Source: a virus | Lineage: Duplodnaviria > Caudoviricetes | Direction: 5' to 3' (one strand) | DNA length: 64,000 nt | Virus record (IMG/VR): IMGVR_UViG_3300037047_000246 | Shown here: positions 43,766 to 58,598 of the stretch, piece by piece | Numbering within the stretch: the stretch's first letter is position 1 | Layout of the letters: each line of letters opens with the position of its first letter | Notes under the pieces: model-generated | What the model was told of the DNA's origin: nothing | The model's database searches: none | Seen by the model: only the letters and a program-made list of their open reading frames with translations | Made by a program: the position numbers and the translations under genes

Positions 43766-44008
43766 TTACATTCCTTTCTGCTTCATGTGCTCAATCTGGC
43801 GCTGCATGCGAGCCAGATCTGCTTCGGATACTACATTGAATACCCGACAAATTTCCTCTTTTTGATCCTTGAAATTATCCAGCATTGACTTATGTCTGTC
43901 CATACCGGCAACTTCGTACATCATGCGCATCCCCGACCATAGCTTAGACCAATCGGCCGTGCTCTTGCTGCCTGGAGATGGGGATATGATTTTTGACTTG
44001 CGATTCAT
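43766..44008 (-). CDS. Hypothetical protein (80 aa)
   Basis: Start reassigned to MNRKSK, 10 nt below a TGTAA box. Confidence 0.45.
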   Translation of the reverse strand: MNRKSKIISPSPGSKSTADWSKLWSGMRMMYEVAGMDRHKSMLDNFKDQKEEICRVFNVVSEADLARMQRQIEHMKQKGM

Positions 44009-44018
44009 ACTGTCAACT

Positions 44019-44023
44019 TTACA
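44019..44023 (-). promoter_or_regulatory. TGTAA box (AATTGTAAAGT, the same 11-mer as at the SSB gene)
   Basis: 10 nt before the ATG at 44008. Confidence 0.45.
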
Positions 44024-44051
44024 ATTTAAGCCACACTGCTGTACGGTGTCA

Positions 44052-44222
44052 ATGATGACGTACGATGACTTTATCGAAAAGCTCAGGGAAATCAAAGCAG
44101 AGTTCAAACGCGCAAAGCGCACAGATTTGATAACCATCGAGCAGCTGGAGCACTACCTGACTGAGCGCAAAAGCCGGCGTTCGTCACGCGGACTGAAGTC
44201 GCTTAAGGGGTTGGACCTGTGA
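44052..44222 (+). CDS. Small basic hypothetical protein
   Basis: MMTYDDF...; GTGA overlap with the next gene. Confidence 0.45.
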   Translation: MMTYDDFIEKLREIKAEFKRAKRTDLITIEQLEHYLTERKSRRSSRGLKSLKGLDL

Positions 44223-44554
44223 ACATTGCCGACGCATGGTCTGTCCTCGGGAAGAACTGGGCCGACCTGGTCAGGGATTTGGCTGCCATGCCAACGGACT
44301 CAGGTAGGGTACAACATGCGGAGCAGCTTTTGGCGGAAGCCAGAAAAATCGCCAGGAAGCTGATGGCGAAGCATCACCCAGACATGAACCAAGACGACCC
44401 TGACTCAGCCATCAGGTTTCAAGCAGTCAGCGCTGCTTTGTCCGCGATTGAGGCTAGCACAAACGAAATGCTGGACAAATACCAAGAGTCAAAGCTGCGA
44501 GCAGAGCAGCTCGCCAGCAAACGCGCCAAAGACGGCTTCATAGTAATAAAGTAG
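44219..44554 (+). CDS. Minimal J-domain protein
   Basis: RKLMAKHHPDMNQDDPDSAIRFQAVSAA (helix II-HPD-helix III). Confidence 0.75.
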   Translation: MNIADAWSVLGKNWADLVRDLAAMPTDSGRVQHAEQLLAEARKIARKLMAKHHPDMNQDDPDSAIRFQAVSAALSAIEASTNEMLDKYQESKLRAEQLASKRAKDGFIVIK

Positions 44555-44576
44555 ACCTCTTGTTCCGCGTACCAAC

Positions 44577-45332
44577 GTGCCCATCATCACCGCCATTCAA
44601 TATAAGCCGCGTTTGGCCACAAGCCCTGCGGACGTGTCTGACAACTTCAGGCGATGCGCACCTCTGGTGAACCAGGCGGCAGCCCTGGGATCCCAGGTGG
44701 TCGTGTTTCCTGAACTGGCGTTCACTGGGTACAGCTTCTTGTCAATCGACGACGCAGCGCCAGTGGCAGAGCGCCGAGACGGCACGACGGCCAATCGCAT
44801 GTCGCAAATGGCCAAGTTGCTGAAAGCCTACGTCGTGTGGGGGTTCGTGGAAGGCGACGGAAACCTGCTGTATAACTCGGCGTCAATGGCCGACCCCAGC
44901 GGCGAAGTAATTTTGACGGTCAGAAAGCTAAACCTGTGGGGCAACGATTTCCTGTGGGCATCGCCTGGAGACGAGCTTCCAGGTGTGGTGAACACAGATG
45001 TTGGGTGGATGTCTGTGTCGATATGTCGAGACATCATAGACAAAGACCCAGTGTCAGGACGCAGACTATTCGCCGACCGGAAGGTGGACCTCCTGGCTGC
45101 ACCGATGAACTGGAGCTCTGGCGGGTTTCCGGCCACGGACTGGATGAACTTCGTGAAGAACAATTCGTGCGCGCTGGTTGTTGCAAATCGATGGGGGACG
45201 GAGAGCAACAGGTCATTCAAACACGACTTCGGCCAAGGCGGTTCCGTAGTGATCGGCAAAGACTCAAGGCCGCACATAGGCGGACTCGTGTTCGGTGCAG
45301 ACAGCACTGTGACAGCAATGATAGACTTGTGA
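44577..45332 (+). CDS. Carbon-nitrogen hydrolase (nitrilase superfamily)
   Basis: Catalytic triad FPEL (E), RKLNL (K), ICRD (C); VANRWG. Confidence 0.93.
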   Translation: MPIITAIQYKPRLATSPADVSDNFRRCAPLVNQAAALGSQVVVFPELAFTGYSFLSIDDAAPVAERRDGTTANRMSQMAKLLKAYVVWGFVEGDGNLLYNSASMADPSGEVILTVRKLNLWGNDFLWASPGDELPGVVNTDVGWMSVSICRDIIDKDPVSGRRLFADRKVDLLAAPMNWSSGGFPATDWMNFVKNNSCALVVANRWGTESNRSFKHDFGQGGSVVIGKDSRPHIGGLVFGADSTVTAMIDL

Positions 45333-45340
45333 GGCACACC

Positions 45341-45733
45341 ATGGCAGATCCGGAAGATTGCGACGTCACCAGGCAGCACGGTCCAGACGACCCGGTCAAT
45401 CCGAATCCTGGTCAGTGCACGCTTTGCACTGGAGACACGAGGGACAACATATTTTTCACGCCCCGTGCGCCAGGTTTTGCCGGCAGGTGCATCTTGGACG
45501 AGATGACGTACGAGCAGGTAGAGCTGGTGCTGCTTCGCAGTCCAAGAGCTAAAGGAGACTTGCTGCGCATCACGTCAAACCCGACCTTGGTCACGATGGC
45601 CAGAAACTCAAGGCTTGTCGAAAATCCGGCTGACGACAACGAAAATATGCGCAAACGGCTCCATGCCAACAGCTTGCCGTTCTACACCCTGTTTAAGGGA
45701 AATCAGGACGGGACGCCCACAGGGAGGCGTTAA
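45341..45733 (+). CDS. Hypothetical protein
   Basis: GAGG RBS, start MADPED; TTAA stop overlap with the convergent nuclease gene. Confidence 0.5.
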   Translation: MADPEDCDVTRQHGPDDPVNPNPGQCTLCTGDTRDNIFFTPRAPGFAGRCILDEMTYEQVELVLLRSPRAKGDLLRITSNPTLVTMARNSRLVENPADDNENMRKRLHANSLPFYTLFKGNQDGTPTGRR

Positions 45734-47304
45734 CCTGCTCCGGGACGGCACCAGACCCACCGCTTCTTGCCGAGGTCCCAAATTTTGGCGTATCCCTGGC
45801 TTTGCCGCAGCAGGCTCTCGGTTTGGGGATACCCATTTGGCTTTCTAAGACCCGATTTGTGGTGTCTGCGTCTGCCTTTGACCCAGTAGTAATCTGGCTT
45901 GACATCCCCGTCGAACACAAAGCCGAGCTTGCCGTACACCCCACCGTTGAACAACCTGTTGTCGGAGAACGAAACAATGGACTGAGGGCAGTGTTGGCGC
46001 ACAAACACTCGCAGCAGCTTTGACCAGATCCCGTGCGCTCGGTATGCCGGGTCGGAAGTCATGCGCACGAGCTCCCAGTCGTGCTTCGACTGGCGGCTTG
46101 GACGCTTGAAGGACACACATGCGATCAGCTTGCCGCCGTACGATGCGCCAACATTGACGCTGGCGCGAGCCCCGCCCAAATAATGGAAGCTGTCGTGAAG
46201 AGCGTCTGCCGACCGGCAGTCTACGAAGCCGACATCGCACGCTGACGGTCTAAGCGACTCTGGCTTGTGCGTGCCAAGCCTGTTCGCTATGATGTCGCAC
46301 ATTTTGGCTTTACTGAAAGCCCACTCGTCCTCGTATATTGCCAATAGCTCGAATCCGTGGTCTATCGAATTCAGGTACTTGGCCGAGTCCCGGCGCCGTG
46401 ACTCAGGGCTTGAATGCCAGCGAAGACCGTGGTGCTCTATGAGCAATCGGCAGTCCGGCACGCCAACATCATAAGCGAGTTTGCCTACTTTGTACTCCAT
46501 GATAGGGTGCGCTCCCAGCGTCCGCACAGCATCCAGTATTTGCTGTTGCGCGTCGCTGACGTGACCGGCTGCGCATCCGCATGTTAACGAACGGCCAATT
46601 CTTATGTCGTCCCATCTAGGATGGTATTCTGCTCCGCAGGCTGCACACGTGGCTCGCACTGGTTCGCCAGTGTTGACGATGCTTTTCGCGATAGCAACCC
46701 CGCCAGGCGGCATTTGCGTCATGCAAATCGGAGTGCGCAACGCACGCAAGTCGTCCTTGTGCGCCTCATACCAAGCAGCAACTGAGGTGCGGCACCTCCC
46801 GCAGCTTTTCGTATTGAGCCTTGTGACACGTATGATCGGCAAGTCAACTTCGCGGCCGCACGTGCAGACCCAGGTTACGAGCTTCGCTGAGGATGGGTGC
46901 GCATCTACCGGCCGCTTCATCCGCAATCTGCCGAACTTCTTGCCCGCCCACTCCTCGGCAGGCAAAACGTTGCATTTGCCACAAGTTGTCGTAAGGCCCT
47001 TGCTCACCGTGACAATTGCGGCCTGTGTTGTTTTGCCGCAATCGCAAAGCCAAATCGCCCGCTTGTTGGAGCCAGTGCTGGTCGGCTGCGGATGCAACAT
47101 TCGCAGCCGACCATACTTGGTGCTTGCCCAGTGCTCGGCTGGCAGAACATTGCACTTGCCGCACGATTTCCTGTGGCCGCGGGCAAAATCAATCCACTTG
47201 ACCGGTATGCCTGTGTTGCCGCATACGCAGTCAAACAGGACAATCTTTCCTGAGCCCGCTGATGGCAGGATCTGGCCTGGTGTTGGTGTCAGTCGCGTCT
47301 GCAT
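45730..47304 (-). CDS. Hef-like free-standing endonuclease 1: 3 Zn-ribbon repeats, Vsr/DUF559-like nuclease, GNAT-fold domain
   Basis: CxCG...SCGxC repeats; YDV...IEHHGLRWH...YEDEW; YRAHGIWSKLL and YGKLGF (GNAT motifs A/B); start taken as MQTRL. Confidence 0.75.
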   Translation of the reverse strand: MQTRLTPTPGQILPSAGSGKIVLFDCVCGNTGIPVKWIDFARGHRKSCGKCNVLPAEHWASTKYGRLRMLHPQPTSTGSNKRAIWLCDCGKTTQAAIVTVSKGLTTTCGKCNVLPAEEWAGKKFGRLRMKRPVDAHPSSAKLVTWVCTCGREVDLPIIRVTRLNTKSCGRCRTSVAAWYEAHKDDLRALRTPICMTQMPPGGVAIAKSIVNTGEPVRATCAACGAEYHPRWDDIRIGRSLTCGCAAGHVSDAQQQILDAVRTLGAHPIMEYKVGKLAYDVGVPDCRLLIEHHGLRWHSSPESRRRDSAKYLNSIDHGFELLAIYEDEWAFSKAKMCDIIANRLGTHKPESLRPSACDVGFVDCRSADALHDSFHYLGGARASVNVGASYGGKLIACVSFKRPSRQSKHDWELVRMTSDPAYRAHGIWSKLLRVFVRQHCPQSIVSFSDNRLFNGGVYGKLGFVFDGDVKPDYYWVKGRRRHHKSGLRKPNGYPQTESLLRQSQGYAKIWDLGKKRWVWCRPGAG

Positions 47305-47998
47305 TATTTCTGACCAGTGGGCCGCCGTAATATCCAGCCACTGCCCGATCCACCACGATATGTGCTTTTTCCGTGACCAATTTGGTGAGGTCCATATCCA
47401 GCACGTATGCAAGAATAAAAGAATAAATAACGACATCGGGCAACTCAGACACTACGGCTCCCAATAACTGCTGATCCGCGTTGCCTCCGTTGCGGAGCGC
47501 TTTAACCATTTTATTCAAACATTCTCCAGCTTCAGCTGACACAGCTGCCGCATAATAGAATGCCGGGTTCTGACCATAGGCTTCCTTCTCACCCATCTGC
47601 TTGATGCGGCACAGCACCTTGTGCGATTCGACAATGGCCGAGAAGATGTCGTCCATAGCCGCTTCACGCTCCCCAACCAGTTCCTTGATTCGTTGGTCGA
47701 TGGTGCTGAATACGCCGTTGACTTCGAAAGTGGCGCTTCTGGCTTCGTCTCGCAGCCGTCGCAGTTCGTCGATTCTGGCGTCAATCTCGGACCGGGTTCG
47801 CTTGGGGATGAAGTCAGTGTGGGTTACCGGGCTGGCTTCTTGCAACACCAAAGACTTGCCAAATACGCCGACGCATTCCCCCGGTTCTTGCGGCTCTGGC
47901 TGCAGCCATACAATTCCAGCGTCGTCGGAGCAGTCGTGAACCGAATGCAGACGGCCGCGAAACATCAAAGTTTGGCCAACCCTAATTGTGTCAAGCAT
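47231..47998 (-). CDS. MazG-like NTP pyrophosphohydrolase with an N-terminal extension
   Basis: AEAGECLNKMVK...SELPDVVIYSFILA..LDMDL...K; the C-terminus runs into the nuclease ORF. Confidence 0.75.
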   Translation of the reverse strand: MLDTIRVGQTLMFRGRLHSVHDCSDDAGIVWLQPEPQEPGECVGVFGKSLVLQEASPVTHTDFIPKRTRSEIDARIDELRRLRDEARSATFEVNGVFSTIDQRIKELVGEREAAMDDIFSAIVESHKVLCRIKQMGEKEAYGQNPAFYYAAAVSAEAGECLNKMVKALRNGGNADQQLLGAVVSELPDVVIYSFILAYVLDMDLTKLVTEKAHIVVDRAVAGYYGGPLVRNNADATDTNTRPDPAISGLRKDCPV

Positions 47999-48633
47999 CA
48001 GATAACCTTGCCTCTTAGAAACATGGCACAGATCGCCGCTGCGTTCTGTGCCAACTGCGAGTAATACTGGCCGAGCTCAAAGCTTTTGCCACCTGTCGCG
48101 AAGATCACATTCTCGTTTTCCGAAGCCATGGCTCGCAGGTCGGCCACCATTCGTTCAAAGAACGGATGGATTTCAGTGTTGCCGCGAGAGACCTCCCGAA
48201 CCATAAAATTGTGCAAGCTCATGAAATCGGCTGCTTTCACGACGGCTCGCACATAGCTCGGATTTTTGGCGGCACCGACCAAGGAATCGGCGGCGGCCAC
48301 CACAGCCCGCATCGATGGACCGAACTCCGTCAAGATTTCCCGTTCAGCTTTGTCTATCGCTTGCTTTAGAGCTTTCGAGCGATACTTGAACGTACGCACG
48401 AAGTCACCCGCTTTCATTTCTGGGATGTCATGCACCAAGGCGCAAGCAAGGCACGCCGCCAATGTGTCTGTATCCTGGGGATCCAGGGCTTGGTGGATCA
48501 TGGCAGCATATATCGTCACCCAGTACGAGTGCGAGGTCACATTCTCCGGCACACTGATTGGAATGGTGCTGTATCGCCAGACATAGTCCAGCCGCTGACA
48601 TTCACGCGTCGTTTCAATAAACTCTGCCCACAT
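47998..48633 (-). CDS. HD-domain nucleotide phosphohydrolase (YfbR/DatZ-like)
   Basis: RL...RY...ENVTSHS...ALVHDIPE..AGD...VKAAD...EVSRGN. Confidence 0.88.
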   Translation of the reverse strand: MWAEFIETTRECQRLDYVWRYSTIPISVPENVTSHSYWVTIYAAMIHQALDPQDTDTLAACLACALVHDIPEMKAGDFVRTFKYRSKALKQAIDKAEREILTEFGPSMRAVVAAADSLVGAAKNPSYVRAVVKAADFMSLHNFMVREVSRGNTEIHPFFERMVADLRAMASENENVIFATGGKSFELGQYYSQLAQNAAAICAMFLRGKVI

Positions 48634-48654
48634 TTGCTGACTCCTGGCTGGAAC

Positions 48655-48659
48655 TTACA
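48655..48659 (-). promoter_or_regulatory. TGTAA box upstream of the HD-MazG-nuclease operon
   Basis: ATGTAAGT, 21 nt before the ATG. Confidence 0.45.
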
Positions 48660-48732
48660 TGCAAAAACACGCTGCGGAGTTCAGAAACGTCGCGAGACGC
48701 TATGCCGCCTCGATGCTGGACGCGCACCTAGG

Positions 48733-48921
48733 TTATTCGAGGCATTGAATCGCCAATAAGGGCATTCCGCCTTCAGGCGACAGGTCAGTGACGGAGCCGG
48801 ACGTGCCGCTCCGCGCCATCTCTTCGACAAGCATGGCCGCCTCTTCGGGCTCCAGCAGCGCATGCTTGACTACCTGGTCGCCTTCGTCGTCCACATACTC
48901 TATGACGTAAAACCTGGGCAT
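48733..48921 (-). CDS. Small acidic hypothetical protein
   Basis: 62 aa ORF. Confidence 0.45.
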   Translation of the reverse strand: MPRFYVIEYVDDEGDQVVKHALLEPEEAAMLVEEMARSGTSGSVTDLSPEGGMPLLAIQCLE

Positions 48922-48946
48922 GATTGGCCTTCATGTAAATTCGGCA

Positions 48947-49348
48947 ATGAAAGACGTACCGCCTGCCATGAAGGTAATCGACATTTCGGACAGGCTGCCT
49001 AAGCACGCTGCGCAGTCTACGCCAGACGAAGCCGGAGCTGTCATCGAGCTAGGTCGGTGCGCGGCCTGCCAACTTGTGCAACGCCTTGAGGATTTCTGCT
49101 GCAGCGACTGCCGCGACAAGTTCGGAGATAAAAGCGGGTTGCTGTTCAGGCGGATACGCGACGATTCGACCTTCGCCGCGGCGTTTTACTCGGCTCTGAT
49201 GCCTAACAAGCGCCAGTCTTTCATCCGCCTGTTTGGCCTCCCGGACGGGTGCCTCGAACCCGGAAAAACACCGAGCCGAGATTCTCGTCCTCGGTTGTGC
49301 GTTGTGTCTGAAGAGCCGCCACAAAACTGCTCAGATCCAAACTCCTGA
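48947..49348 (+). CDS. Hypothetical protein with CxxC...CxxC
   Basis: CAAC...CSDC; TGTAA box just upstream. Confidence 0.5.
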   Translation: MKDVPPAMKVIDISDRLPKHAAQSTPDEAGAVIELGRCAACQLVQRLEDFCCSDCRDKFGDKSGLLFRRIRDDSTFAAAFYSALMPNKRQSFIRLFGLPDGCLEPGKTPSRDSRPRLCVVSEEPPQNCSDPNS

Positions 49349-49724
49349 GCTTGGCTGCACTTTCCAAGATTTTCAGCACGCGGAGCGGGTTCCCCTTCAG
49401 TAGCATGGCTTCCTGAACAAGGTCTGTTGCAGTTTTGTCCCGCCATCGGCCAACTTCGTCTCTGTCGACGACGCGCGGGCCGTTGTTTGACACAATCCAC
49501 TGGTGTTTTTTGAGTTCGATGTCAAGCGCTGCATGCGGCGCTGTAGGCAGATCGTGTTCAGACAGGTCTTGCTTCAGCATCAAAACCCGTCCTGACTTTT
49601 CAATCAAAACAGCTTCAGGAATTGATGCGAACTCGGTGGGGAACCATCCGACTACATGAAAGCCTTCAGAATCACAATTGCAAAGAGCGCCAGCGTCAGG
49701 CATACCACCAAAATCCCCGTCCAC
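49221..49724 (-). CDS. Hypothetical protein (start uncertain)
   Basis: ORF in the minus-strand run; overlaps both neighbours. Confidence 0.35.
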   Translation of the reverse strand: MDGDFGGMPDAGALCNCDSEGFHVVGWFPTEFASIPEAVLIEKSGRVLMLKQDLSEHDLPTAPHAALDIELKKHQWIVSNNGPRVVDRDEVGRWRDKTATDLVQEAMLLKGNPLRVLKILESAAKLRSLDLSSFVAALQTQRTTEDENLGSVFFRVRGTRPGGQTGG

Positions 49725-49984
49725 TTTACTGCTTTCATGGACACCGCGAAAGCAGTGGCAGACGGAGAGCGCTTCACTGCCAAGATTTGTGCGTCGTTTT
49801 GGCCTGCTTGCTGACTGTCAAGCGCCGTAGCCAGTCCAGACAACTGATCGAATGTCAAGTATCCGGGGACAGGAACGTGCATGGGAACGCAACGGCCGAC
49901 ACACTCCGTGGGCTTCTTGCCGCACTCGGGGCAGTGCTCGCTGGAGATCTGGTGCTGCGCGCCGCAAATCCTGCATCTCATCAT
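49652..49984 (-). CDS. Zn-ribbon membrane protein
   Basis: CRICG...CPECG; C-terminal TM helix. Confidence 0.6.
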   Translation of the reverse strand: MMRCRICGAQHQISSEHCPECGKKPTECVGRCVPMHVPVPGYLTFDQLSGLATALDSQQAGQNDAQILAVKRSPSATAFAVSMKAVKWTGILVVCLTLALFAIVILKAFM

Positions 49985-50652
49985 GACAAGCCTCGATTCA
50001 GTTGGCTGATGCCTTCCAACAGCAGGTCCTGGAGCGGCGCATCCCTGTCTTGCACAGATTCAACAAACTTTTGGACGTCTCTTTTGTTGAATCCCAAGTT
50101 GGCAAGGCCTGACTGCAGCTGACTGGCCAGTTGGTCGTTCCGCTGGGAATCCTCGGCCAGCCGGCAGCTCTCTGCCGGCTGCATCTCTGCCAGCTGCAGC
50201 TCCAGCTCCTGCACGGCAAATTGCCGCCGCAGCATGACTTCGTCCATCTTCCTATCCACGTACGCTTTTTGCACTTCGGACAGAGAGTCCTGGAACAAGC
50301 TGACCAGGAATGGGGACGCCATCCACCTGTCTGCGTCCACAATCTCGAGCACGAAATCCCAAAAGGCCACTTGGTCAAGCGCTGTCGACCTGGTTAATGG
50401 TTCTTGCTGACTCATGGAAATGAGTGCACAAGTGTCGCTGACCGACCCGTCTTGCTGCACCAGAGACTCAATCATGTGCACCGCGTGCTCGTTGTGAGCT
50501 TTCACCAGCAAAACACGCTTCACGGACTGGTCGGCCGAAAACATGCCAAAGACGTACCAAGCCTGGCTGAGGCCGAAAGCCGGGTGCGCCGGACCAACCA
50601 CCTTGGTATCTTTGATCTGAACCTTGCTCATATTTGGGGCTACGTCAGGCAT
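49981..50652 (-). CDS. Protein with a C-terminal RuvA domain III-like module
   Basis: LQSGLANLGFNKRDVQKFVESVQDRDAPLQDLLLEGISQL; start taken as MPDVAP. Confidence 0.55.
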   Translation of the reverse strand: MPDVAPNMSKVQIKDTKVVGPAHPAFGLSQAWYVFGMFSADQSVKRVLLVKAHNEHAVHMIESLVQQDGSVSDTCALISMSQQEPLTRSTALDQVAFWDFVLEIVDADRWMASPFLVSLFQDSLSEVQKAYVDRKMDEVMLRRQFAVQELELQLAEMQPAESCRLAEDSQRNDQLASQLQSGLANLGFNKRDVQKFVESVQDRDAPLQDLLLEGISQLNRGLS

Positions 50653-50698
50653 CGGCCGATTTCCGGCCTTAATCCGGAGAAGCCACAGGAGGCCCCTG

Positions 50699-51220
50699 AT
50701 GAAAACCTTCCCTATTTCCGTCTTGATCGCAATTCTGACGTTCACCGTCGCAGCTGGCGCCCAAGACCAGTGCGAGGGACCGCAAGAGCTGTGCGCTCAA
50801 GTGCTCCAGCTCAAATCTGAGCTGGAATCGCATAAGCAAAACGCCGAGTCTGGCGCCAAAGACAGCGCGGCGGCTCTGCGAGCTCAGCAACAGTACCAAG
50901 AAACTAAGGCAATCCAGTTCGTGGGTGCCATGAGCACCCTGGCTGTCGTACTGAAGATACTGCTGAGCCTGCTGGCGAACTGGAAGGATACCCTGTTCAA
51001 GAGCGACCGCGGCAAAGCAGCCATACGCATCGCCATCCTTGTTGTTACGCTGTGCATCTTTTTGGCCACGAACATGGGCTTCGGCATACCATGGTGGCAG
51101 GCCATGATTCTTGCAGCTGGCGGTCCGTTGTCGATGGTGCTGCACGAAATGATGAAACTAGTGCCGGTGGTGCGCGGCAAGTCTAAGATGCCGGACGAAG
51201 AAGCCGCGCCTCAGGCGTGA
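50699..51220 (+). CDS. Exported coiled-coil protein with C-terminal TM helices (holin-like C-terminus)
   Basis: AGGAGG RBS, signal peptide ending AGA/Q, 2-3 TM segments. Confidence 0.6.
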   Translation: MKTFPISVLIAILTFTVAAGAQDQCEGPQELCAQVLQLKSELESHKQNAESGAKDSAAALRAQQQYQETKAIQFVGAMSTLAVVLKILLSLLANWKDTLFKSDRGKAAIRIAILVVTLCIFLATNMGFGIPWWQAMILAAGGPLSMVLHEMMKLVPVVRGKSKMPDEEAAPQA

Positions 51221-52527
51221 TCGTGAGGCTTGCAGGCAACAGGCCTGCTGCATGTAGGACAACTCGGGATTGAAGACAGATCTGCCAAAACCGAGTCCAA
51301 ATCTTTGTCTGTTTGCTTTTGTTGCACTTTAAGTTCAGCCACTTCCCGCTGCAGCTGCAGCATCTCCGCCATTGCAGCCTTTGCTTTTGACACCCCGGAC
51401 AGCTGCGAGGAAAGGTTTGGATCTGGCGGCACAGACGCTTCCGCGTCCAGCGTATTCACAGAGTGGCGCAAACCGGACAGGCTCTTGTGCAGCACTTTTG
51501 CAGCGGCCACTCTCGCTATGTCACAACTGTCGGGGGGCTGAGGCAGATCGATTTCGCCGATTGCTTCGAGCGTCTGCACAGTCTGCTTCAGCTGCCTCAG
51601 CCCGGAGTACTTCTTGATTCGCAGCCACGCTTCGTGCTCCTTCGCAGGCACGTCCGGCAAAAACAGCATTTTTGTGCCCCTCAAAGCGATGATGGCGCGG
51701 GCTGCCTCCTCCAGTCGCCTGAGTCTGGACTTCATTTCAAGTGTATTGGCTACCTGGTCTGCCATCCCGTTGTGGGGGATGGATACCGCGCCCACAGGCC
51801 CGAGCACGTCCACCAAAACAGAGAGTTTGGAAATCGACTCTAGAAGCTCCTTGGCTCTAGTTACCTTGTCTCCGTACTCGTTGATTGAGTCGTGCTGGTG
51901 CTCCAGCTCTTTGACTATCGTTTCCAGCTCAGGCAAGTTGCCGACCTTGGCCAAATTGGACTCGCATTGCTCAACTTCGGCTTCGGCCGATTTCAGGTCT
52001 TCCAGCGATTTGCGCTTGCCCTTCAAACCAAGCGATATTGCATCCTGCAGAACGTTCAGCCCTGATATTTCAGATATGAACTGCGTTATGGTCGGCCCGC
52101 CTTCGTCGAGCAAAAACAATGGGCTCCACTGAGACGCATACCACGGATGCATTTCTCTGTCGCCAATGCGCACTGCGCCGAATCCGAACTTGCCAATCGG
52201 CTCTGGCGGCTTTTGGCCCACATTTTCCAGTTTCTCCGGGCGCCCATCTATGCAATACCGATTCAGCCCTTTCTCCGCTTTCTCCCACAGAAACCCCCAC
52301 GGTTTCCCGTCGGCCTCGGAAGAGATGCGCACAGAGCATGATTTGGATCCGGTGCGCACCAGGTTGGTGACTGGTTTGTTGAGCAAAGCGCCGGAAATCG
52401 CCCGCAGGATGCTAGATTTGCCTATGTTGGTAGGGCCTGTAATGCATGTGAACCCGGCTATCTCGATGTCGAGATCTGCTATCGACTGATAGTTCTTGAT
52501 TGTCACGCGGACTGGATGCAGTTTCAT
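51211..52527 (-). CDS. Rad50/SbcC N-terminal half ending at the Zn hook
   Basis: IKNYQSI, GPTNIGKSS, Q-loop (ASQW), coiled coil, terminal CPTC; no signature or Walker B half; GGAGG RBS. Confidence 0.8.
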   Translation of the reverse strand: MKLHPVRVTIKNYQSIADLDIEIAGFTCITGPTNIGKSSILRAISGALLNKPVTNLVRTGSKSCSVRISSEADGKPWGFLWEKAEKGLNRYCIDGRPEKLENVGQKPPEPIGKFGFGAVRIGDREMHPWYASQWSPLFLLDEGGPTITQFISEISGLNVLQDAISLGLKGKRKSLEDLKSAEAEVEQCESNLAKVGNLPELETIVKELEHQHDSINEYGDKVTRAKELLESISKLSVLVDVLGPVGAVSIPHNGMADQVANTLEMKSRLRRLEEAARAIIALRGTKMLFLPDVPAKEHEAWLRIKKYSGLRQLKQTVQTLEAIGEIDLPQPPDSCDIARVAAAKVLHKSLSGLRHSVNTLDAEASVPPDPNLSSQLSGVSKAKAAMAEMLQLQREVAELKVQQKQTDKDLDSVLADLSSIPSCPTCSRPVACKPHDHA

Positions 52528-52538
52528 GTCCGCCTCCG

Positions 52539-53876
52539 TCAAACCATGTCAGCCGTGATTTCAGATACTCCTGCGGCCACGCCGTCTTCTTCAACCTCAC
52601 CATCTTCGTTTACGGACACGCCGTCTGCATTCACAACTTCGCCGCCATCGTCCGACTCGTAGTCTTCGTCGTCCCCTTCGCGCTTAGTGACTGCGTCCTC
52701 GGCCAGCTGCGCTAGCTGTTCGTCGTCCAGCACCTTAAAGCCTTGCAAGATGTTCTCGACGCATCCGTTGACCAACTCGTCGGTCAACTTGAGCTTGGTC
52801 ATTTCCATCCGGAAACGCTCAATTCCGACCACCTCGACCTTTTGGCCGCCGGCAGACGAGTACGAGTAGGTCTCTTGCCTCTTGGCGTTCTTGCCGATCT
52901 TGATGAGCTTATATGCCTGCGCAACGTTCAACATGGTGCGCAGCTCGTCGATGCCGACGCCGTACCGGATTGTGATGAGCCCAGCATGACCCTGGGTCGC
53001 ATCGATCTTGTTTTTGATCATCTTGACTTCGATGTCGGTCGAAATCTGCACATCTTCCATGCTGCGCGTCAGCGGGTTCCACAACTTGGCTTTAGCTGAC
53101 ATGCGCGGCTTCAGCATCATGCGCACGCTTGCCCAGAATTTCAGGGCGTTGCCGCCGGTCGTGGACTTGAGGGCTTCCTCGCTCTTGGCAAATTTGGACA
53201 CGCCAATCTTGTCTCTGGTCTGATTCAGAAACATGCAGTGCGTGCCCGTCCTGGCAATGATGCTCTGGAGTTTGGGCATCCACTGAGACATCAGGCGAGG
53301 AATTTCCGCCACGCCCATCTTCTCGTCTTCATTGGACGTGTCTCGCTTGATTTCGCGACTGGACACCAGACCAGCCACGGAGTCTATGACGATGAAGTCC
53401 ACGCCCTGCAAACAAGCGTTCATCACCAGGGCCTCAGTCTCCTCGAACGTGTGCGGCTGGACCCGGATGGCGCGGCCCTCACCGCCAACTTCTGGCGGTC
53501 GGAAATCTACGCCTAACTTCATGGCATAGTGGTCCTGCACTGCGCATTCGAGATCGACGTACAAGCCGCAGCCGTCTTCTCCTCCCCGACGGAGAGCATG
53601 TGCCATGGCTGTCATGGCGATGGTGGACTTGCCTGAGCTCTCGCGACCAAATACCTCAGAAATCTTGCCTCGGGGCCATCCAGGGCACACAAAGGTGCCG
53701 TCCGGCAATCTGGTTCCGCCAATCAGCAAGTTCAGGATGGTGCTGCCGGTCGGCGTGTAGTCCTGCTGAAACTTCGGCGTGACGAACACCCCCCTGATAT
53801 TTGTCCGCTTTTCGATGGACTCGGTGAATTTCTTGAGCTTGGGATGAAGTTTGACTGCGGCTGCCGATTTCGCCAT
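52539..53876 (-). CDS. recA: RecA recombinase
   Basis: PTGS..LN, PRGKISEVFGRESSGKST, VIDSVAGL, FLNQTRDKIG, TTGGNALKFWAS. Confidence 0.97.
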   Translation of the reverse strand: MAKSAAAVKLHPKLKKFTESIEKRTNIRGVFVTPKFQQDYTPTGSTILNLLIGGTRLPDGTFVCPGWPRGKISEVFGRESSGKSTIAMTAMAHALRRGGEDGCGLYVDLECAVQDHYAMKLGVDFRPPEVGGEGRAIRVQPHTFEETEALVMNACLQGVDFIVIDSVAGLVSSREIKRDTSNEDEKMGVAEIPRLMSQWMPKLQSIIARTGTHCMFLNQTRDKIGVSKFAKSEEALKSTTGGNALKFWASVRMMLKPRMSAKAKLWNPLTRSMEDVQISTDIEVKMIKNKIDATQGHAGLITIRYGVGIDELRTMLNVAQAYKLIKIGKNAKRQETYSYSSAGGQKVEVVGIERFRMEMTKLKLTDELVNGCVENILQGFKVLDDEQLAQLAEDAVTKREGDDEDYESDDGGEVVNADGVSVNEDGEVEEDGVAAGVSEITADMV

Positions 53877-53905
53877 AATGCCTCCAGGTGTTATAATACA
53901 CTCGT

Positions 53906-54628
53906 TCAGCCTTCAAGCGTCTTGGCCTGGTCGGCCTCCAGCCACCTGACGAGCATCGAGTTGATGTCGGATTTGGTCGGCAAATCCACCGACCCCTCGG
54001 GAACCCGCGAAAACTCGAAGAACCTGGAGTTTTCGCGGAACACGTGAGCCGTCTTGCGCAGCGACAGAGACCCGTCCGAGCGCTTGCGCTTCTTGGTTCG
54101 AGTCAGAAATGCTGATCGCTCATTGTCGGACAGGTCTTCGGGAGCCAGCATGCCTGCTCGGACTTCCATGAATCGGGCGGCGAACCGGGCGATGCAGTAC
54201 GCGTCCGCCTCGTTATTGTCTATGGTGCCGGACGACATGGTGTCGAGCTGCACGAATCGCTGCATATCCGACTTGGCGAATGTAGACTTGCCCACCATGT
54301 ATTTGACTGTGGTCGGATCGAACAGCACGCAGTCGCGGCGCCGAGCGAATATGGCCTCCAGCGAAAACATCATCAGCCCGAAGTGATTCTCGCTGAAGGG
54401 GCCACCCCCGAACGCCGGCGATTCTATCCCGACCGCCCGGACCTCGTAGCGGCGCAGCAGATCTGCCACCAGCGACCGGAAATGCATGAATCGGGCGACC
54501 GGCACGGTGAGCGGCAAAGTGCCCTCATGGCCTGACGCGACCCGGCGCAAGCGCGGGTCTTTCGCCTGGCTGTCGTATACGCACCATCCGTAGGCTTTTA
54601 GTGATGGGTCAAGACCGAGTGTTAGCAT
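53906..54628 (-). CDS. ruvC: RuvC-like Holliday junction resolvase
   Basis: LGLDPS..AYGW, VGIESP, VKY, DNNEADA. Confidence 0.85.
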   Translation of the reverse strand: MLTLGLDPSLKAYGWCVYDSQAKDPRLRRVASGHEGTLPLTVPVARFMHFRSLVADLLRRYEVRAVGIESPAFGGGPFSENHFGLMMFSLEAIFARRRDCVLFDPTTVKYMVGKSTFAKSDMQRFVQLDTMSSGTIDNNEADAYCIARFAARFMEVRAGMLAPEDLSDNERSAFLTRTKKRKRSDGSLSLRKTAHVFRENSRFFEFSRVPEGSVDLPTKSDINSMLVRWLEADQAKTLEG

Positions 54629-54632
54629 GTAA
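54628..54632 (+). promoter_or_regulatory. TGTAA box at the left edge of the nuclease-2 cassette
   Basis: 14 nt before the ATG at 54647; overlaps the first base of the ruvC start codon. Confidence 0.4.
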
Positions 54633-54646
54633 TGTCTGAGGTGACC

Positions 54647-56410
54647 ATGATGATGACACTAGTCCGCGGGGTTCGATATGGCAGTCTAGAATACATCGGT
54701 GACACAGTCACCATCGGCGAGCGTAGCGCCAAAAAACTAACATTCGCGTGCGACTGCGGGCAACGCACGGAGGTAATGCTGCGCAATGTCGTGCTTGGCA
54801 AAAGCAAATCGTGCGGAAGATGCACAGCGCGGCTCATCAAAACGGGAGACGTGTTTGGTGATCTTACATGGGTGGGTTCCGATGCCTACGTCCAACCGGA
54901 AAGCCAAAAGCAACATCCTTTCCAGTGCAAGTGCGGTCGAGTTAAAAGCATGCGCTTGTTCACGGTCCTGAGGGGGCGGGCCAAAACCTGCGGATTATGC
55001 AACTCGATGGTATTGGCCACAGGCGACAGAGTCCACAGCTTCGAGTATGTCGGGCCTACGGTTGAAATACATGCCGGGTCCAACAAGAGACTCTCGTTCC
55101 AATGCAGCTGCGGGCACACGACGTTCCGTCGCTTTAAGAGCATACGAGCCGAGTCCACATGTGGGCACTGTCGAGACGTGTCGTTGAGTCCAGGCGATCC
55201 ATACAAAAACTTCGTGTATGCAGGCACGCACCCCGTGATCGTCGGGATGTGTAGCAAGAAGAAACTCTTGTTTCAATGCAAATGTGGCAATACCAAGGCA
55301 ATCAGTGTCAATCTAATCACCAGTGGTGATGTTGTGTCGTGCACTGAATGCTATGCGAGGGTCCGCACTGCGTACGCACAGCATCTGGACATGCTTCGCT
55401 CGATAAAATGCCCGATTGACCAGGATGGATTCCCCGAGGGCCTCCCAAGACCTTTGGAAGCCATCAGGAACGTCACAGACTCGTTCGCAATGCCCTGCCC
55501 CGCGTGCGGTCGGATTTACCGACCAAGGCTCAACGACCTGAAACGTCTGAAGTGTTTGACATGCGGATGCACAAATAACGTAGTATCAGGTCAGAATCTA
55601 CAACTGGCGGAGTTCATCCGCGGTCTCGGCTTCACACCCATACAAGAACATCCGATTGGCGGGAAGGTTTTTGACCTATATGTGCCAGAGGCTAGCCTTC
55701 TGGTGGAACTTCAAGGCATCCGGTGGCACTCGAAGCCAGGCAGCGCCGAACGCGAAGGTGCCAAGTATGAGATTGCCAAAGCGTCCGGGAGCACATCGCT
55801 CTGGATATATGAAGACGAATGGAAGCACAGGCGCCGAGCCATCGAGTCGATTGTTGCGCATAAACTTGGCATAAAACCTGATTTCAGGTTGAGACCAAAG
55901 AGCTGCGACATAAGACTGGTGACCAGTAGTGAAGCCAATGCCCTGTACGACGAGTTCCATTACATAGGCCGGTGTGCGTCTCCGTTTAACATCGCTGCTT
56001 TCTATGATGGTCAGATGGTGGCCGCCATGTCATTCAGGAAGCCGTCCAGACAGAGCAAGCATAGCTATGAGATGTCTCGAATGGTCATGAGGCCCAGGTT
56101 CAGAATACACGGGATATGGTCCAAGTTTATGGCCGAATTCCGTGCAACCCACCCGCACTCAAGCATCGTGGCCTACTCGGACAACCGGCTATTTGACGGC
56201 CACACGTACCGAGCAATAGGGTTTACTTATGATGGTGACGTGAAACGCGATTATTATTGGGCGCGCGGCGGTCATCGCTATCACAAGTCAGCGTTGCGCA
56301 AATCCGCTGGCTGTGTCGTGACTGAGAACGCCCTGAGGACCTCGCAGGGGTTTGCGAAGATATGGGACCTAGGCAAAAAGAGGTGGATTCTCGCGTCAAC
56401 CCCAGCGTAA
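54647..56410 (+). CDS. Hef-like free-standing endonuclease 2: 4 Zn-ribbon repeats, Vsr/DUF559-like nuclease, GNAT-fold domain
   Basis: GAGGT RBS; CxCG...SCGxC repeats; FDL...VELQGIRWH...YEDEW; FRIHGIWSKF, YRAIGF and KIWDLGKKRW shared with copy 1. Confidence 0.78.
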   Translation: MMMTLVRGVRYGSLEYIGDTVTIGERSAKKLTFACDCGQRTEVMLRNVVLGKSKSCGRCTARLIKTGDVFGDLTWVGSDAYVQPESQKQHPFQCKCGRVKSMRLFTVLRGRAKTCGLCNSMVLATGDRVHSFEYVGPTVEIHAGSNKRLSFQCSCGHTTFRRFKSIRAESTCGHCRDVSLSPGDPYKNFVYAGTHPVIVGMCSKKKLLFQCKCGNTKAISVNLITSGDVVSCTECYARVRTAYAQHLDMLRSIKCPIDQDGFPEGLPRPLEAIRNVTDSFAMPCPACGRIYRPRLNDLKRLKCLTCGCTNNVVSGQNLQLAEFIRGLGFTPIQEHPIGGKVFDLYVPEASLLVELQGIRWHSKPGSAEREGAKYEIAKASGSTSLWIYEDEWKHRRRAIESIVAHKLGIKPDFRLRPKSCDIRLVTSSEANALYDEFHYIGRCASPFNIAAFYDGQMVAAMSFRKPSRQSKHSYEMSRMVMRPRFRIHGIWSKFMAEFRATHPHSSIVAYSDNRLFDGHTYRAIGFTYDGDVKRDYYWARGGHRYHKSALRKSAGCVVTENALRTSQGFAKIWDLGKKRWILASTPA

Positions 56411-56414
56411 GCAT
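56392..56414 (-). pseudogene. Displaced remnant of the ruvC 5' end (MLTLGL)
   Basis: ATG CTT ACG CTG GGG TTG AC versus the live ruvC ATG CTA ACA CTC GGT CTT GAC; 17 of 23 nt identical with one gap. Confidence 0.75.
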
Positions 56415-56720
56415 TTTGCCAAACTTACGGCGATGAGCCAGCTAAATAAATGCACACAGGCCACGATAGCCACGATGGCCAGAAAGCGCCACCCGCGGCC
56501 CTCGAGACTCGCCATCAACCCCAGGGCTGTCGCACGCCAGCAGCAGCGCAATAAGAATGGATGCCAACTCCCTCCTCGAGAGGGGATGACCGCTAGGCGT
56601 TCATGTCTCGTGACGCTGGCTCACCCGCTTGGCAAACTCCACCATCGTGAGCTTTGTTAGCTCAGTATAGCGGCGTCCAGATGCAGTGTGAGTTTGGCAG
56701 TAGGTGGTCCAAGCGGGAGG

Positions 56721-56748
56721 CTTGGTAGATACGAATCGAACTACCAAG
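56721..56748 (-). terminator. Hairpin downstream of the SSB gene (no U-tract)
   Basis: CTTGGTAG-12 nt-CTACCAAG. Confidence 0.3.
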
Positions 56749-56762
56749 TGAACCGATATTCG

Positions 56763-57656
56763 CTAGGTGAGAAGATCTGAATACGACGACACCAGCTTAG
56801 GCGCTTCAGCCTGGGCGCCAGACGAAATCTGAGCAGAACCGCCGCCACCGCCGCCCAACTGCTGCAGCTTCTCCATCAGCTTGTCTCGCGTCATTTCGAA
56901 GCCGAGGTTCTGCTGCACGTACTTGTAAGCGCGCAGCCCCTGATCCAGCACCCAAGCGCGGGTTTCAGGGTCGCAGTCTTCTCGAGCCCAGAACGCGGTG
57001 GAGGCCGCTTCGATTTGCTGCTTCTGGAACTTGGGATCGCCGTCCAGCGTCACGCGCAGGTCGATGACCTCCCGCTTGTCGTTGCGCGCGTCGGTGTACG
57101 CTGCCTCGAGCTTCTTGAACTTCTTGGCCGACATGGCCCACACGTAGAAATTCGTGTATTTGCGCATCTTGAGCAAATCGGCGTCGACCTGGCCCTTGTC
57201 GTCAATCGGATAGGTCATGATGATGCAGCCGACCTTCTGATCCGCATCGCCAAACTTGTTGCAGCACATTTCCGGCTGTACCATCGTCTGGCCCTCGTAC
57301 TTGCTCAGGCAACGGATGGTGCCGACCCCTTCAGAATAGTGGGTATACGCCATCGAGAACTTGGGCCTGGCGATGTCCAGGCGCTCGCCTTCGGTCAGCT
57401 TGTCCACGGCCTTGCCGAGCTTCTCTGCCAGCTTGGCGTCGATCTTTGCATTGTACTGAGACTTCTCTTCGTCAGTCAGCGGCCGCCCGGCTTCAAGCGC
57501 CTTCTTGGCGAGAATGCCGTCGTGGTGGCGCTTAAAAGACACGATGGTGACGCGGTGCTTCTCGCCGGGGCGGGTCTGCTTGAAAGTTTCGACCCCAACC
57601 ACCTTGATGACCTTGGCATCGTCGAATCCGAATTCCATCACACTTGAGTCACTCAT
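56763..57656 (-). CDS. gp32-like single-stranded DNA-binding protein
   Basis: HY...IRC...CC spacing resembles the gp32 Zn site; short tail ...SYSDLL; recombination-cluster context. Confidence 0.55.
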   Translation of the reverse strand: MSDSSVMEFGFDDAKVIKVVGVETFKQTRPGEKHRVTIVSFKRHHDGILAKKALEAGRPLTDEEKSQYNAKIDAKLAEKLGKAVDKLTEGERLDIARPKFSMAYTHYSEGVGTIRCLSKYEGQTMVQPEMCCNKFGDADQKVGCIIMTYPIDDKGQVDADLLKMRKYTNFYVWAMSAKKFKKLEAAYTDARNDKREVIDLRVTLDGDPKFQKQQIEAASTAFWAREDCDPETRAWVLDQGLRAYKYVQQNLGFEMTRDKLMEKLQQLGGGGGGSAQISSGAQAEAPKLVSSYSDLLT

Positions 57657-57718
57657 TGTCTCTACCTCTTTGTTGAACGCTTTGGACTTTTGGCCATTTG
57701 GCCGTTGATGCAGACACT

Positions 57719-57723
57719 TTACA
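57719..57723 (-). promoter_or_regulatory. TGTAA box upstream of the SSB gene
   Basis: AATTGTAAAGT, 62 nt before the ATG. Confidence 0.45.
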
Positions 57724-57740
57724 ATTGAAAGGCGCCGCTG

Positions 57741-58598
57741 CTAAACATCGTCAAACAGCATAGGCGCCACTGGCTCGACCACGTCGTCGTCGTAAGCCGG
57801 TTTGCGCACTGGCTCCTGCTGGGCGGAGTCACGTGGCCCAATAACAGCCCGATCTTTAATCTGGTCCTGAGGCGGCTTTGAGCTGAAGAAGTCAGCGATC
57901 TGCTGCGCGTGCATCTCGTCCATTGGCTCCGGCATGTCCGCCGGCCTTTTTTCCGGGTCGAGCAAGTCCTTCGGGTCTATTGCGCCCGGGGACACCGGCG
58001 GCGGCATGCCGTCAGGCACCGATCTGTCCTGTCTGGCCTGCGGCTTGCTATATCCATGCTGACCGGCCATTTGCGCATCAGCGTCGTCTCTGACTAGCTG
58101 GCGCTGAGACTTTACGTCCGCGTTAGTTCTGATCAGGTCTTGGTGCTTCAGTTTGACAATCTTGTACGTTTCTGCGGCGTCGAGCAGTTCCAAACGCAAG
58201 GCGGACAGGTTGTCATGCTCCGGTCTGAGCAGCATGGTGGCCAGCGCCTTGCGGTCTTCTATCGATGGCTGCTTGCGCACTTCCGGGTCGTCGGCCAACT
58301 TCTGAGCAAGCTTCAGTTCAAGGTCCAGCTCCATCTGGCGGGTTTCCACCGTGAGCTCCTTGACCTGCTTGCCTATGGTCTGCATGTAGTATATGACCCT
58401 ATTGAGGTATTTGCGACACAGAGCGACGCGACTGTTCAAATACCTGACCCCCAGGTCCGGCAAAGTCGGATCTTCAGCCAATTCGACTTCGAATGCCGCA
58501 ATCTCTTCAAGAATAACCGAGAACTGGTCCGCCGTATACTTCATGGGTATGCGCATCAGTGGTGGCAGAGGTTGAAACGGCCGCAGGGCTGCAGTCAC
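57741..58598 (-). CDS. Coiled-coil protein, possible UvsY-like recombination mediator
   Basis: Helical, directly upstream of the SSB gene; start may be 58544 or 58556. Confidence 0.35.
   Translation of the reverse strand: MTAALRPFQPLPPLMRIPMKYTADQFSVILEEIAAFEVELAEDPTLPDLGVRYLNSRVALCRKYLNRVIYYMQTIGKQVKELTVETRQMELDLELKLAQKLADDPEVRKQPSIEDRKALATMLLRPEHDNLSALRLELLDAAETYKIVKLKHQDLIRTNADVKSQRQLVRDDADAQMAGQHGYSKPQARQDRSVPDGMPPPVSPGAIDPKDLLDPEKRPADMPEPMDEMHAQQIADFFSSKPPQDQIKDRAVIGPRDSAQQEPVRKPAYDDDVVEPVAPMLFDDV

Follow-up and report, generated by a model that had tools for sequence, protein, structure and literature searches.

Two Hef-type homing endonuclease genes with a Mom-like domain in an uncultured phage, and a possible cut-and-protect role

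Introduction

Hef of phage U5, the founder of the Hef-type homing endonucleases, is said to cut its own DNA in vitro, and the family is reportedly one of homing endonucleases established as such by genetics. We deal here with two genes of this type, Hef1 and Hef2, which lie in a stretch of 64,000 nucleotides (hereafter, the window) of a 362,524-bp virus record with terminal repeats, derived from an uncultured groundwater/coal phage (IMG/VR IMGVR_UViG_3300037047_000246). Each encodes a single chain in which zinc modules precede a Vsr-like nuclease and a C-terminal GNAT domain akin to Mom of phage Mu. 'Bacteriophage Hef type homing endonucleases' have been placed in the Vsr-like EDxHD family, according to Taylor et al. 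(2011), and F-LimVIII was classed as Hef-like in the LIMEstone paper.

Mom of phage Mu moves glycine from Gly-tRNA(Gly) to the N6 of adenine in DNA, and its active site consists of H58, Y59, R111, S124, D149, R151, and Y159, among which R111, S124, D149, and R151 are essential (Nat Commun 2026). The arginine R111 is kept in Mom homologs and not across GNATs, and is thus Mom-specific; Mom is also a dimer and a tight DNA binder (2020 Mom paper). A helix-turn-helix-like insertion of Mom, at residues ~175-209, is essential for activity. The main text of the 2026 paper makes no use of the terms 'fused', 'fusion', 'homing', or 'Vsr'.

Fusions between a Mom-like domain and an endonuclease have been described in jumbo phages. 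In the work of Iyer, Anantharaman, Krishnan, Burroughs, and Aravind (2021; Viruses 13:63), momylation is predicted to shield phage DNA and the nuclease to attack host or superinfecting DNA, and one phage, PA5oct, is given as carrying five such enzymes. The Hef architecture and the idea of a nuclease plus a modifier have therefore been published before, the idea in the form of a prediction (Iyer et al., 2021). A literature search found no paper testing the function of the Mom-like/GNAT domain of Hef proteins. What the window adds is a clade with the complete Mom catalytic set, together with two cleanly delimited insertion sites.

Hef1 and Hef2 as Members of the Hef Family

The two genes are as follows.

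45730..47304 (stop included), minus strand: Hef1 gene, 524 amino acids (open reading frame list; PHROG 559, E 1.9e-53)
54647..56410, plus strand: Hef2 gene, 587 amino acids; the open reading frame also opens at 54632 (PHROG 559, E 8.6e-58)

The initial annotation had read both as single-chain zinc-repeat/nuclease/GNAT open reading frames, and such genes are indeed present, given the E-values above and a structural model of the nuclease-GNAT part with a pLDDT of 94.9. PHROG 559 is annotated 'homing endonuclease', as is PHROG 3339, which is matched by Hef1 with an E-value of 5.3e-45 and by Hef2 with one of 5.1e-43. Hef had been brought in at first as a mere analogy; with these matches, and with relatives in 363 phage records, Hef1 and Hef2 belong to the Hef-type family in their own right. 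They are paralogs with 39% identity across 498 residues (E 2e-118) and have one domain order, namely CxC..CxxC zinc modules, a proximal zinc ribbon, a Vsr/EDxHD-type nuclease, and a C-terminal GNAT domain. The Hef1 start at 47304 is backed by a metagenomic homolog, P0008 (524 amino acids, 57% identical), which begins at the equivalent Met, and a Shine-Dalgarno-like GAGGTG box precedes the Hef2 start at 54647. The G+C fraction is 0.575 for Hef1, 0.535 for Hef2, and 0.567 for the window. A megablast of window positions 44000-58000 against the phage collection gave zero matches, an NCBIfam scan of the two proteins gave no useful match, and Pfam gave only sub-threshold matches (MTES_1575, Mom, Acetyltransf_1, and DUF4379). 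In addition, contigs of a groundwater metatranscriptome run (X5) match, letter for letter, stretches of Hef1 and its neighbours (45939-46189, 46795-46959, and 47126-47318); at most, this is a hint of transcription, DNA carry-over being possible.

The family is widespread. By tblastn, the nuclease-plus-tail unit finds matches in 363 of 50,697 phage records, including phages of Vibrio, Campylobacter, Acinetobacter, Klebsiella, Dickeya, Salmonella, Pseudomonas, Bacillus, and Thermus as well as Lak phages. At least 80% of the nuclease-GNAT unit is covered at one place in 343 of the 363, so that fusion of the two domains is the rule. The matches are annotated 'homing endonuclease', 'Hef-like homing endonuclease', F-LimVIII, or Hef73, and in one case 'putative nuclease/acetyltransferase'; a gene of SdyM006 among them is annotated 'Hef-like'. 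Wroclawvirus MIJ3 matches the nuclease-GNAT unit at 4 places (tblastn), and PA5oct is presumably a Wroclawvirus too. In metagenomes, at least 234 homologs were found at E 1e-5 among 8,000 scored candidates, and the 120 homologs listed are 469-775 amino acids long.

Nuclease Domain and Zinc Modules

The nuclease domains and the zinc-binding elements in front of them have the following positions.

46264..46563, minus strand: Hef1 Vsr/EDxHD-type PD-(D/E)xK nuclease domain, residues ~248-347 (VIA structure matches; conservation)
55580..55879, plus strand: Hef2 Vsr/EDxHD-type nuclease domain, residues ~312-411 (alignment to Hef1; motifs)
46792..47229, minus strand: three CxC..CxxC zinc modules of Hef1, residues 26-51, 87-111, and 147-171 (regular expression)
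46573..46647, minus strand: proximal CxxC..CxC zinc ribbon of Hef1, residues 220-244 (regular expression)
54749..55351, plus strand: four CxC..CxxC zinc modules of Hef2, residues 35-59, 94-118, 153-175, and 211-235 (regular expression)
55496..55570, plus strand: proximal CxxC..CxC zinc ribbon of Hef2, residues 284-308 (regular expression)

Residues 240-524 of Hef1, covering the nuclease and GNAT domains, were modelled with AlphaFold2 from an alignment of 122 sequences with a mean column identity of 29%; the model has a mean pLDDT of 94.9 and a pTM of 0.89. In structure comparison with VIA, residues 9-108 of this model match the DUF559 protein 3hrl (Z 12.5; 89 residues aligned, root-mean-square deviation 2.2), the catalytic domain of I-Bth0305I (3r3p; Z 12.2; 94 of 98 residues, deviation 2.7), and Vsr (1cw0; Z 11.6). 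The motif D-x10-E-x-x-G-x-x-W-H, from which a Vsr-like nuclease had been proposed at the outset, is located at residues 279-297 of Hef1 and 343-361 of Hef2 (D343, E354, H361), and an EDEW motif follows at 325-328 and 389-392, respectively, so that the proposal agrees with the structure matches. Conservation of the acidic and histidine positions among the 122 sequences is nearly complete: D279, D326, and E327 are found in all 122, E290 and H297 in 121, and D306 in 117. By spacing only, Hef1 D279, H297, and D306 can be paired with D196, H213, and D222 of I-Bth0305I, as numbered in its description. The Pfam family PF18741 (MTES_1575) matches the two proteins with 28.3 and 15.2 bits, below its gathering cut-off of 38.2. 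As judged from the model, the nuclease is of the Vsr-like fold and appears to have its conserved Asp/His/Asp catalytic residues intact.

The Cys columns of the proximal ribbon are at least 90% conserved in the 122-sequence alignment. Between 2 and 7 zinc modules, most often 4, are found in the 120 metagenomic homologs listed, in most of which PF14311 is precomputed; the zinc region of Hef1 matches the Pfam family DUF4379 ('treble clef zinc finger') with an E-value of 0.0092, under the cut-off.

The C-Terminal Domain and Its Tie to Mom

The C-terminal domains are as follows.

45733..46248, minus strand: Hef1 Mom-clade GNAT domain, residues ~353-524 (Foldseek, VIA, hhalign, and conservation)
55895..56407, plus strand: Hef2 Mom-clade GNAT domain, residues ~417-587 (Pfam Mom, PHROG 1384, and motifs)

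Both GNAT motifs named in the initial annotation were located. R-x-H-G-I-W-S-K stands at the position of motif A (Hef1 422-429, Hef2 486-493) and Y-x-x-x-G-F at that of motif B (Hef1 457-462, Hef2 521-526); motif A, however, is only near-canonical, since the Hef1 clade has R-x-x-G-x-W against Q/R-x-x-G-x-G/A of GNATs. Further motifs common to the two tails are HY.G, E..RM, SDNR, and KIWDLGKKRW, and the Hef2 tail spells its motifs HYIG, EMSRM, RIHGIWSK, SDNR, and YRAIGF. A search of the tail against Mom and GNAT structures and profiles, the check proposed with that annotation, returned a GNAT fold with Mom in front: by Foldseek against the PDB, ranks 1 and 2 are the two chains of Mu Mom, 8bv8_A (E 3.0e-7) and 8bv8_B (E 2.9e-6), and ordinary GNATs trail behind, starting at E 1.4e-5. 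In VIA, which is independent of Foldseek, Mom 8bv8_B scores Z 12.1 and gives the longest alignment (145 residues) with the second highest identity (19%). In the model, then, the GNAT fold of the tail is certain; because Mom does not have the top VIA score, a tie to the Mom family needs evidence from sequence.

Profile searches supply part of it. PHROG 1384, 'Mom-like DNA modification protein', is matched by Hef2 with an E-value of 4.9e-10 and by Hef1 with one of 0.003, the Pfam Mom match of Hef2 has an E-value of 0.0036, and the same family, PF25680, is precomputed in 44 of the 120 metagenomic homologs listed (hand count). For comparison with the Mom family, Mu Mom was taken from the phage Mu record and its family was collected, with 55 members aligned. 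The Hef alignment against the single Mom sequence is insignificant in hhalign (E 0.12), and a phmmer search of the tail against PDB sequences did not recover Mom and returned just the weak GNAT match 2bsw (E 0.016).

The persuasive part of the tie is the pairing of residues in the alignments. H374, Y375, R414, S428, D448, R450, and Y457 of Hef1 are the equivalents of Mom H58, Y59, R111, S124, D149, R151, and Y159, the equivalence of S124 being one of sequence alignment and not of superposition, and the full set is found in Hef2 as well. Across the Hef1 clade (n=122), H374, Y375, E411, R414, S447, R450, and Y457 are present in all 122 sequences, D448 in 119, and S428 in 103. After beta-6 there is an extension of two short helices with an equivalent of Mom H183 (H482; 115 of 122), which is shorter than that of Mom and differs in sequence. 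A wider alignment was made of 8 Moms and 16 diverse Hef-like proteins, the latter being the window pair, four other copies of the same genome, and ten phage genes (Campylobacter, Dickeya, Shigella, Salmonella, Bacillus, Thermus, Pseudomonas, two Acinetobacter, and one Lak phage). In it the equivalents of H58, R111, and Y159 occur in all 16 Hef-like proteins and that of S124 in 14. The cofactor loops fall into three forms: classical Hefs have the canonical GNAT loop x-x-x-G-G-A-S-[KR]-L-L, Mom has R-N-S-E-S, and the Hef1 clade has R-x-H-G-I-W-S. Since the Mom residue set is matched in the alignments, the Hef tail belongs to the Mom clade; by the same alignments the Hef1 clade keeps what is predicted to be the complete Mom catalytic set, unlike parts of the wider Hef family. 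The Mom-type tail of the initial annotation is upheld in its kinship to Mom by the Foldseek ranking and the residue set. As for the acetyl-CoA that was attached to it, the current model of Mom has Gly-tRNA(Gly) in its place, and the donor of the Hef tail may be a charged tRNA or an acyl-CoA.

A GNAT domain might instead acylate something other than DNA, for instance a host or phage protein, a tRNA, or a small molecule, as modelled by TacT or the Rac acetyltransferases. Generic GNATs reach VIA Z 13.5 with this tail, weak matches to Acetyltransf_1 (E 5.5e-4) and glyphosate N-acetyltransferase (E 0.016) exist, and the cofactor loop departs less from the canonical form than Mom's does. However, the arginine of ELxR[MLF] together with SF[SA]D-x-R and VY is common to Mom and not to generic GNATs, and in 343 of the 363 phage records the domain occurs as a fixed fusion with a DNA nuclease. 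We consider a non-DNA target highly improbable.

Insertion at Conserved Gene Ends

The window was compared with a complete phage genome of 376,674 bp with terminal repeats (G001), in which the genes neighbouring Hef1 and Hef2 have 64-68% protein identity to those of the window. The features of the two sites are as follows.

45719..47308, no strand assigned: Hef1 insertion, 1,590 nucleotides; the site is empty in G001
47231..47308, minus strand: replaced C-terminal tail of the MazG-like gene, 25 codons plus stop, running out of frame through the 5′ end of Hef1
56395..56414, minus strand: second copy of the ruvC start, its first ~20 nucleotides (MLTLGL), differently coded, just past the Hef2 stop
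G001:C1:358928-359071: remnant of the tail in G001, inside an open frame of 122 amino acids

Homology to G001, at both the DNA and the protein level, stops at ~47309 and restarts at ~45718. The Hef1 insert thus consists of the open reading frame with 4 nucleotides on one side and 11 on the other, between the last homologous codons, and in G001 the stop of the MazG-like gene and the stop of a convergent small gene are 3 nucleotides apart at this place. The end of the MazG-like protein is altered: after the shared GYYGGPL[VF]R, a new tail follows in the window and a short 'QYA' in G001. Contigs of another public run (X4) bridge both edges of the Hef1 insert with identical sequence, and no contig of the public runs skips either edge. 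At the second site, the distance between ruvC and the upstream 296-amino-acid gene is 97 nucleotides in G001 and 2,134 in the window, where Hef2 lies between them on the opposite strand. Hef1 and Hef2 are therefore discrete insertions at conserved gene ends, the 3′ end of the MazG-like gene and the 5′ end of ruvC, and the mobility suggested in the initial annotation is borne out by two sites that are empty in a complete relative.

Two side observations concern the same sites. The small conserved gene that converges on Hef1 (45335-45733, plus strand; ~132 amino acids, CTLCTGD motif, no PHROG match) has last four codons (TGRR) that are new in comparison with G001 and overlap the Hef1 stop. Upstream of ruvC, 27 nucleotides at 54629-54655 resemble the ruvC-proximal spacer of G001 and contain the Hef2 start codon on the other strand; because of this, the Hef2 insertion point is less simple than 'six codons into ruvC'.

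Throughout the G001 genome, the sole match to the nuclease-GNAT unit is a piece of 45 residues from the C-terminus of the tail with 60% identity, in a first-look search whose filter could miss distant copies; this piece looks like a decayed Hef copy. Relatives in cultured phages are located between gp23 and gp24, portal and terminase, or uvsX and the primase-helicase gene, or beside nrdA or tail-sheath genes. Empty sites, core-gene neighbours, and variable numbers of zinc modules together amount to the behaviour of free-standing homing endonuclease genes.

This distribution bears on a broader role, in which the proteins would form a restriction-modification weapon of the whole phage, marking adenines across its genome and destroying unmarked host or superinfecting DNA. 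Such a role would suit a nuclease joined in one chain to a Mom-clade domain with its catalytic set, and many copies per genome; moreover, the published prediction covers exactly such fusions of jumbo phages (Iyer et al., 2021). Yet the window copies are lineage-specific insertions, with only the 45-residue remnant left in the complete relative, the 2-7 zinc modules suggest long and rare targets rather than frequent cutting, the relatives occupy locations next to core genes that are typical of homing, and the family is annotated as homing endonucleases. A stable defensive gene common to close relatives is likewise not borne out, both syntenic sites in G001 being empty. The restriction-modification role proposed at the outset therefore fits poorly, since the complete relative lacks the Hef genes, and we regard it as improbable.

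Further Copies and Purine-Related Genes

The genome from which the window comes has 19 matches to the Hef proteins: 8 full-length close copies (39-52% identity, the window pair included), 3 distant ones, and 8 further zinc-repeat matches in the same frames. The distant copies are the following.

G000:C1:250376-251251 (L014), G000:C1:166071-166934 (L015), and G000:C1:214144-215016 (L019): distant paralogs, nuclease plus tail, 25-27% identity

The tails of these three have loops that are more Mom-like (an N-x-x-S cofactor loop, and SF[SA]D-x-T-x-GH-x-GT-x-Y), and the WDLGKKRW end is missing.

A search with the tail only matched proteins of <288 amino acids in 54 of 89 candidates. Two of these are internal gene calls on the same genome, and the majority of the rest either come from contigs only a few kb long or span no more than 42-70% of the domain; we read these short proteins as fragments or decayed copies rather than as a sign of an independent enzyme. 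Separately, many calls of 80-127 amino acids named 'predicted acetyltransferase' (P0262-P0295), on contigs of up to 342 kb, comprise the first 42-70% of the tail with 55-74% identity, and could represent Hef genes of related phages that are truncated or in decay.

Genes of purine metabolism occur near two of the copies. An HD protein (47998-48633, minus strand) upstream of the MazG-like gene (47231-47998, minus strand) matches PHROG 7076, 'dATP triphosphohydrolase', with an E-value of 3.9e-16, and a gene of the adenylosuccinate-synthetase family (79.6 bits) at G000:C1:249203-250210 (L033) is directly followed by the distant copy L014. Because genes like those for dATP triphosphohydrolase, MazG, and adenylosuccinate synthetase are present, the genome may contain 2-aminoadenine (Z); L033 could be PurZ or PurA alike. 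If it does, the purine of self DNA that the nuclease and the Mom-like domain meet would not be adenine.

Proposed Role

The explanation that we favour is that Hef1 and Hef2 are free-standing Hef-type homing endonucleases whose Mom-like domain may provide a cut-and-protect function, and we put the probability of this explanation as a whole at about 0.7. Its parts differ in strength. The two genes are very probably mobile homing endonucleases of the Hef type. Catalytic activity of the Mom-like domain on DNA is a tentative proposal, at somewhat less than even odds; given such activity, protection of self from the linked nuclease would be rather likely. Leaving the two apart, the odds lean slightly toward a tail that does chemistry on DNA or binds it adenine-specifically, because the Mom set is invariant in the Hef1 clade, and the most economical role for such a tail is immunity of the resident genome.

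The proposed course of events would be as follows. The zinc array would read a long target, and the nuclease would cut the allele of a co-infecting relative that lacks the gene, whereupon recombinational repair would copy the Hef gene in. The Mom-like domain, as a putative acyl- or aminoacyl-transferase, would mark the N6 of adenine, or of 2-aminoadenine, in or near the target, and the resident or newly converted genome would thereby escape re-cutting. In a stricter form, each Hef copy would be a selfish unit that reads one long site, acylates a purine N6 there on the resident genome, and cuts only unmarked co-infecting genomes. This stricter form is unlikely as it stands; if true, a phage with 11 or more Hef copies would have as many site-specific hypermodified positions, and, in a 2-aminoadenine genome such as the PurZ-, DatZ-, and MazG-like genes would allow, the Mom-like domain would act on 2-aminoadenine.

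Several observations weigh against a cut-and-protect role. First, part of the Mom set is not kept in the wider alignment of 16 Hef-like proteins: D149 is present in 12 (Asn in three T4-like genes, Tyr in the Thermus gene), R151 in 8, with an Arg one position earlier in three more, and Y59 only in copies of the window's own genome, L or I standing in the other 10. Second, general comparisons set Mom less apart than the residues do. The VIA score for Mom (Z 12.1) is not above those of ordinary GNATs (Z 11-13.5), Pfam Mom (PF25680) gives 17.0 and 17.4 bits, below the gathering cut-off of 27.1, and hhalign of the Hef against the Mom family profile is only moderate (E 2e-4, probability 46%, 136 columns). 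Third, with one relative, whose flanks have 67-74% DNA identity, insertion and loss cannot be polarised, and no gene-less allele was found in the contigs of four groundwater/coal metagenome runs, although contigs cannot show absence. Fourth, both insertions change the ends of the flanking genes, so that disruption of the target could by itself give immunity. Finally, a relation to Hef of phage U5, the founder, is one that we presume from the annotations of others.

The first and the fourth of these points would be accommodated if the Mom-like domain were non-enzymatic and helped to position the nuclease, whether as a clamp that binds DNA or flips bases or as a dimerisation module; Mom itself is dimeric and tight on DNA, and with immunity from the insertion alone no chemistry would be required. 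Against a passive tail, the Mom catalytic set shows little or no variation across the 122 sequences of the Hef1 clade, at a mean column identity of 29%, and classical Hefs keep the canonical G-x-A-S cofactor loop of GNATs. A non-enzymatic tail thus seems somewhat unlikely to us.

Which of these holds is of wider interest, since Hef-type genes, at 363 of 50,697 records, rank with the most frequent selfish genes that large phages carry. All of these records have a domain related to Mom, which to our knowledge is the only DNA-aminoacylating enzyme. As its chemistry was solved only in 2026, DNA marking by hundreds of homing endonucleases has now become a straightforward bench question. If the tail modifies DNA, it would represent a new class of site-specific DNA hypermodification and homing endonucleases with built-in immunity; if it is inactive, a catalytic fold would have been reused as a DNA reader.

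Comparison with Known Systems

The nearest relatives are the Hef-like homing endonucleases of T4-like phages and of phages of Campylobacter, Dickeya (F-LimIII/VII/VIII/X), Klebsiella, and Acinetobacter, which have the same nuclease and C-terminal unit with 24-34% identity over 82-98% of it. Like Hef1 and Hef2, they are free-standing beside core genes and occur in multiple copies, with as many as 11 places in a single Campylobacter phage record. In contrast to these classical Hefs, the clade of the window has CxC..CxxC arrays and the equivalents of Mom Y59 and R151, which are mostly missing there.

With Mu Mom (8BV8), the tails have in common the GNAT fold, HY, ELxRM, the Ser of helix alpha-3, SF[AS]D-x-R, VY, and the equivalent of H183. 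The identity is 17-19%, and Mom stands alone, whereas the Hef domains are fused to a nuclease; the C-terminal extension of the Hefs is shorter and has a KIWDLGKKRW signature of its own, and their loop is R-x-H-G-I-W-S against R-N-S-E-S in Mom.

Single-chain Type IIG/IIC enzymes such as MmeI also combine a nuclease and a modifier in one polypeptide, with S-adenosylmethionine-dependent methyltransferase domains, and are cellular defence genes. The Hef modifier, by contrast, is a Mom-type GNAT, and the gene is a mobile insertion; what MmeI offers is a model for the sparing of hemi-modified self. The nuclease fold of the Hefs is common to I-Bth0305I (3R3P), the prototype of the EDxHD enzymes, which differs, according to its description, in being intron-encoded, in using NUMOD and helix-turn-helix modules to bind DNA, and in having no GNAT domain.

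The Mom-endonuclease fusions of jumbo phages agree with Hef1 and Hef2 in architecture, in the kind of genome, and in the cut-and-protect prediction (Iyer et al., 2021). They are read there as components of restriction, whereas the evidence presented here favours mobile homing genes.

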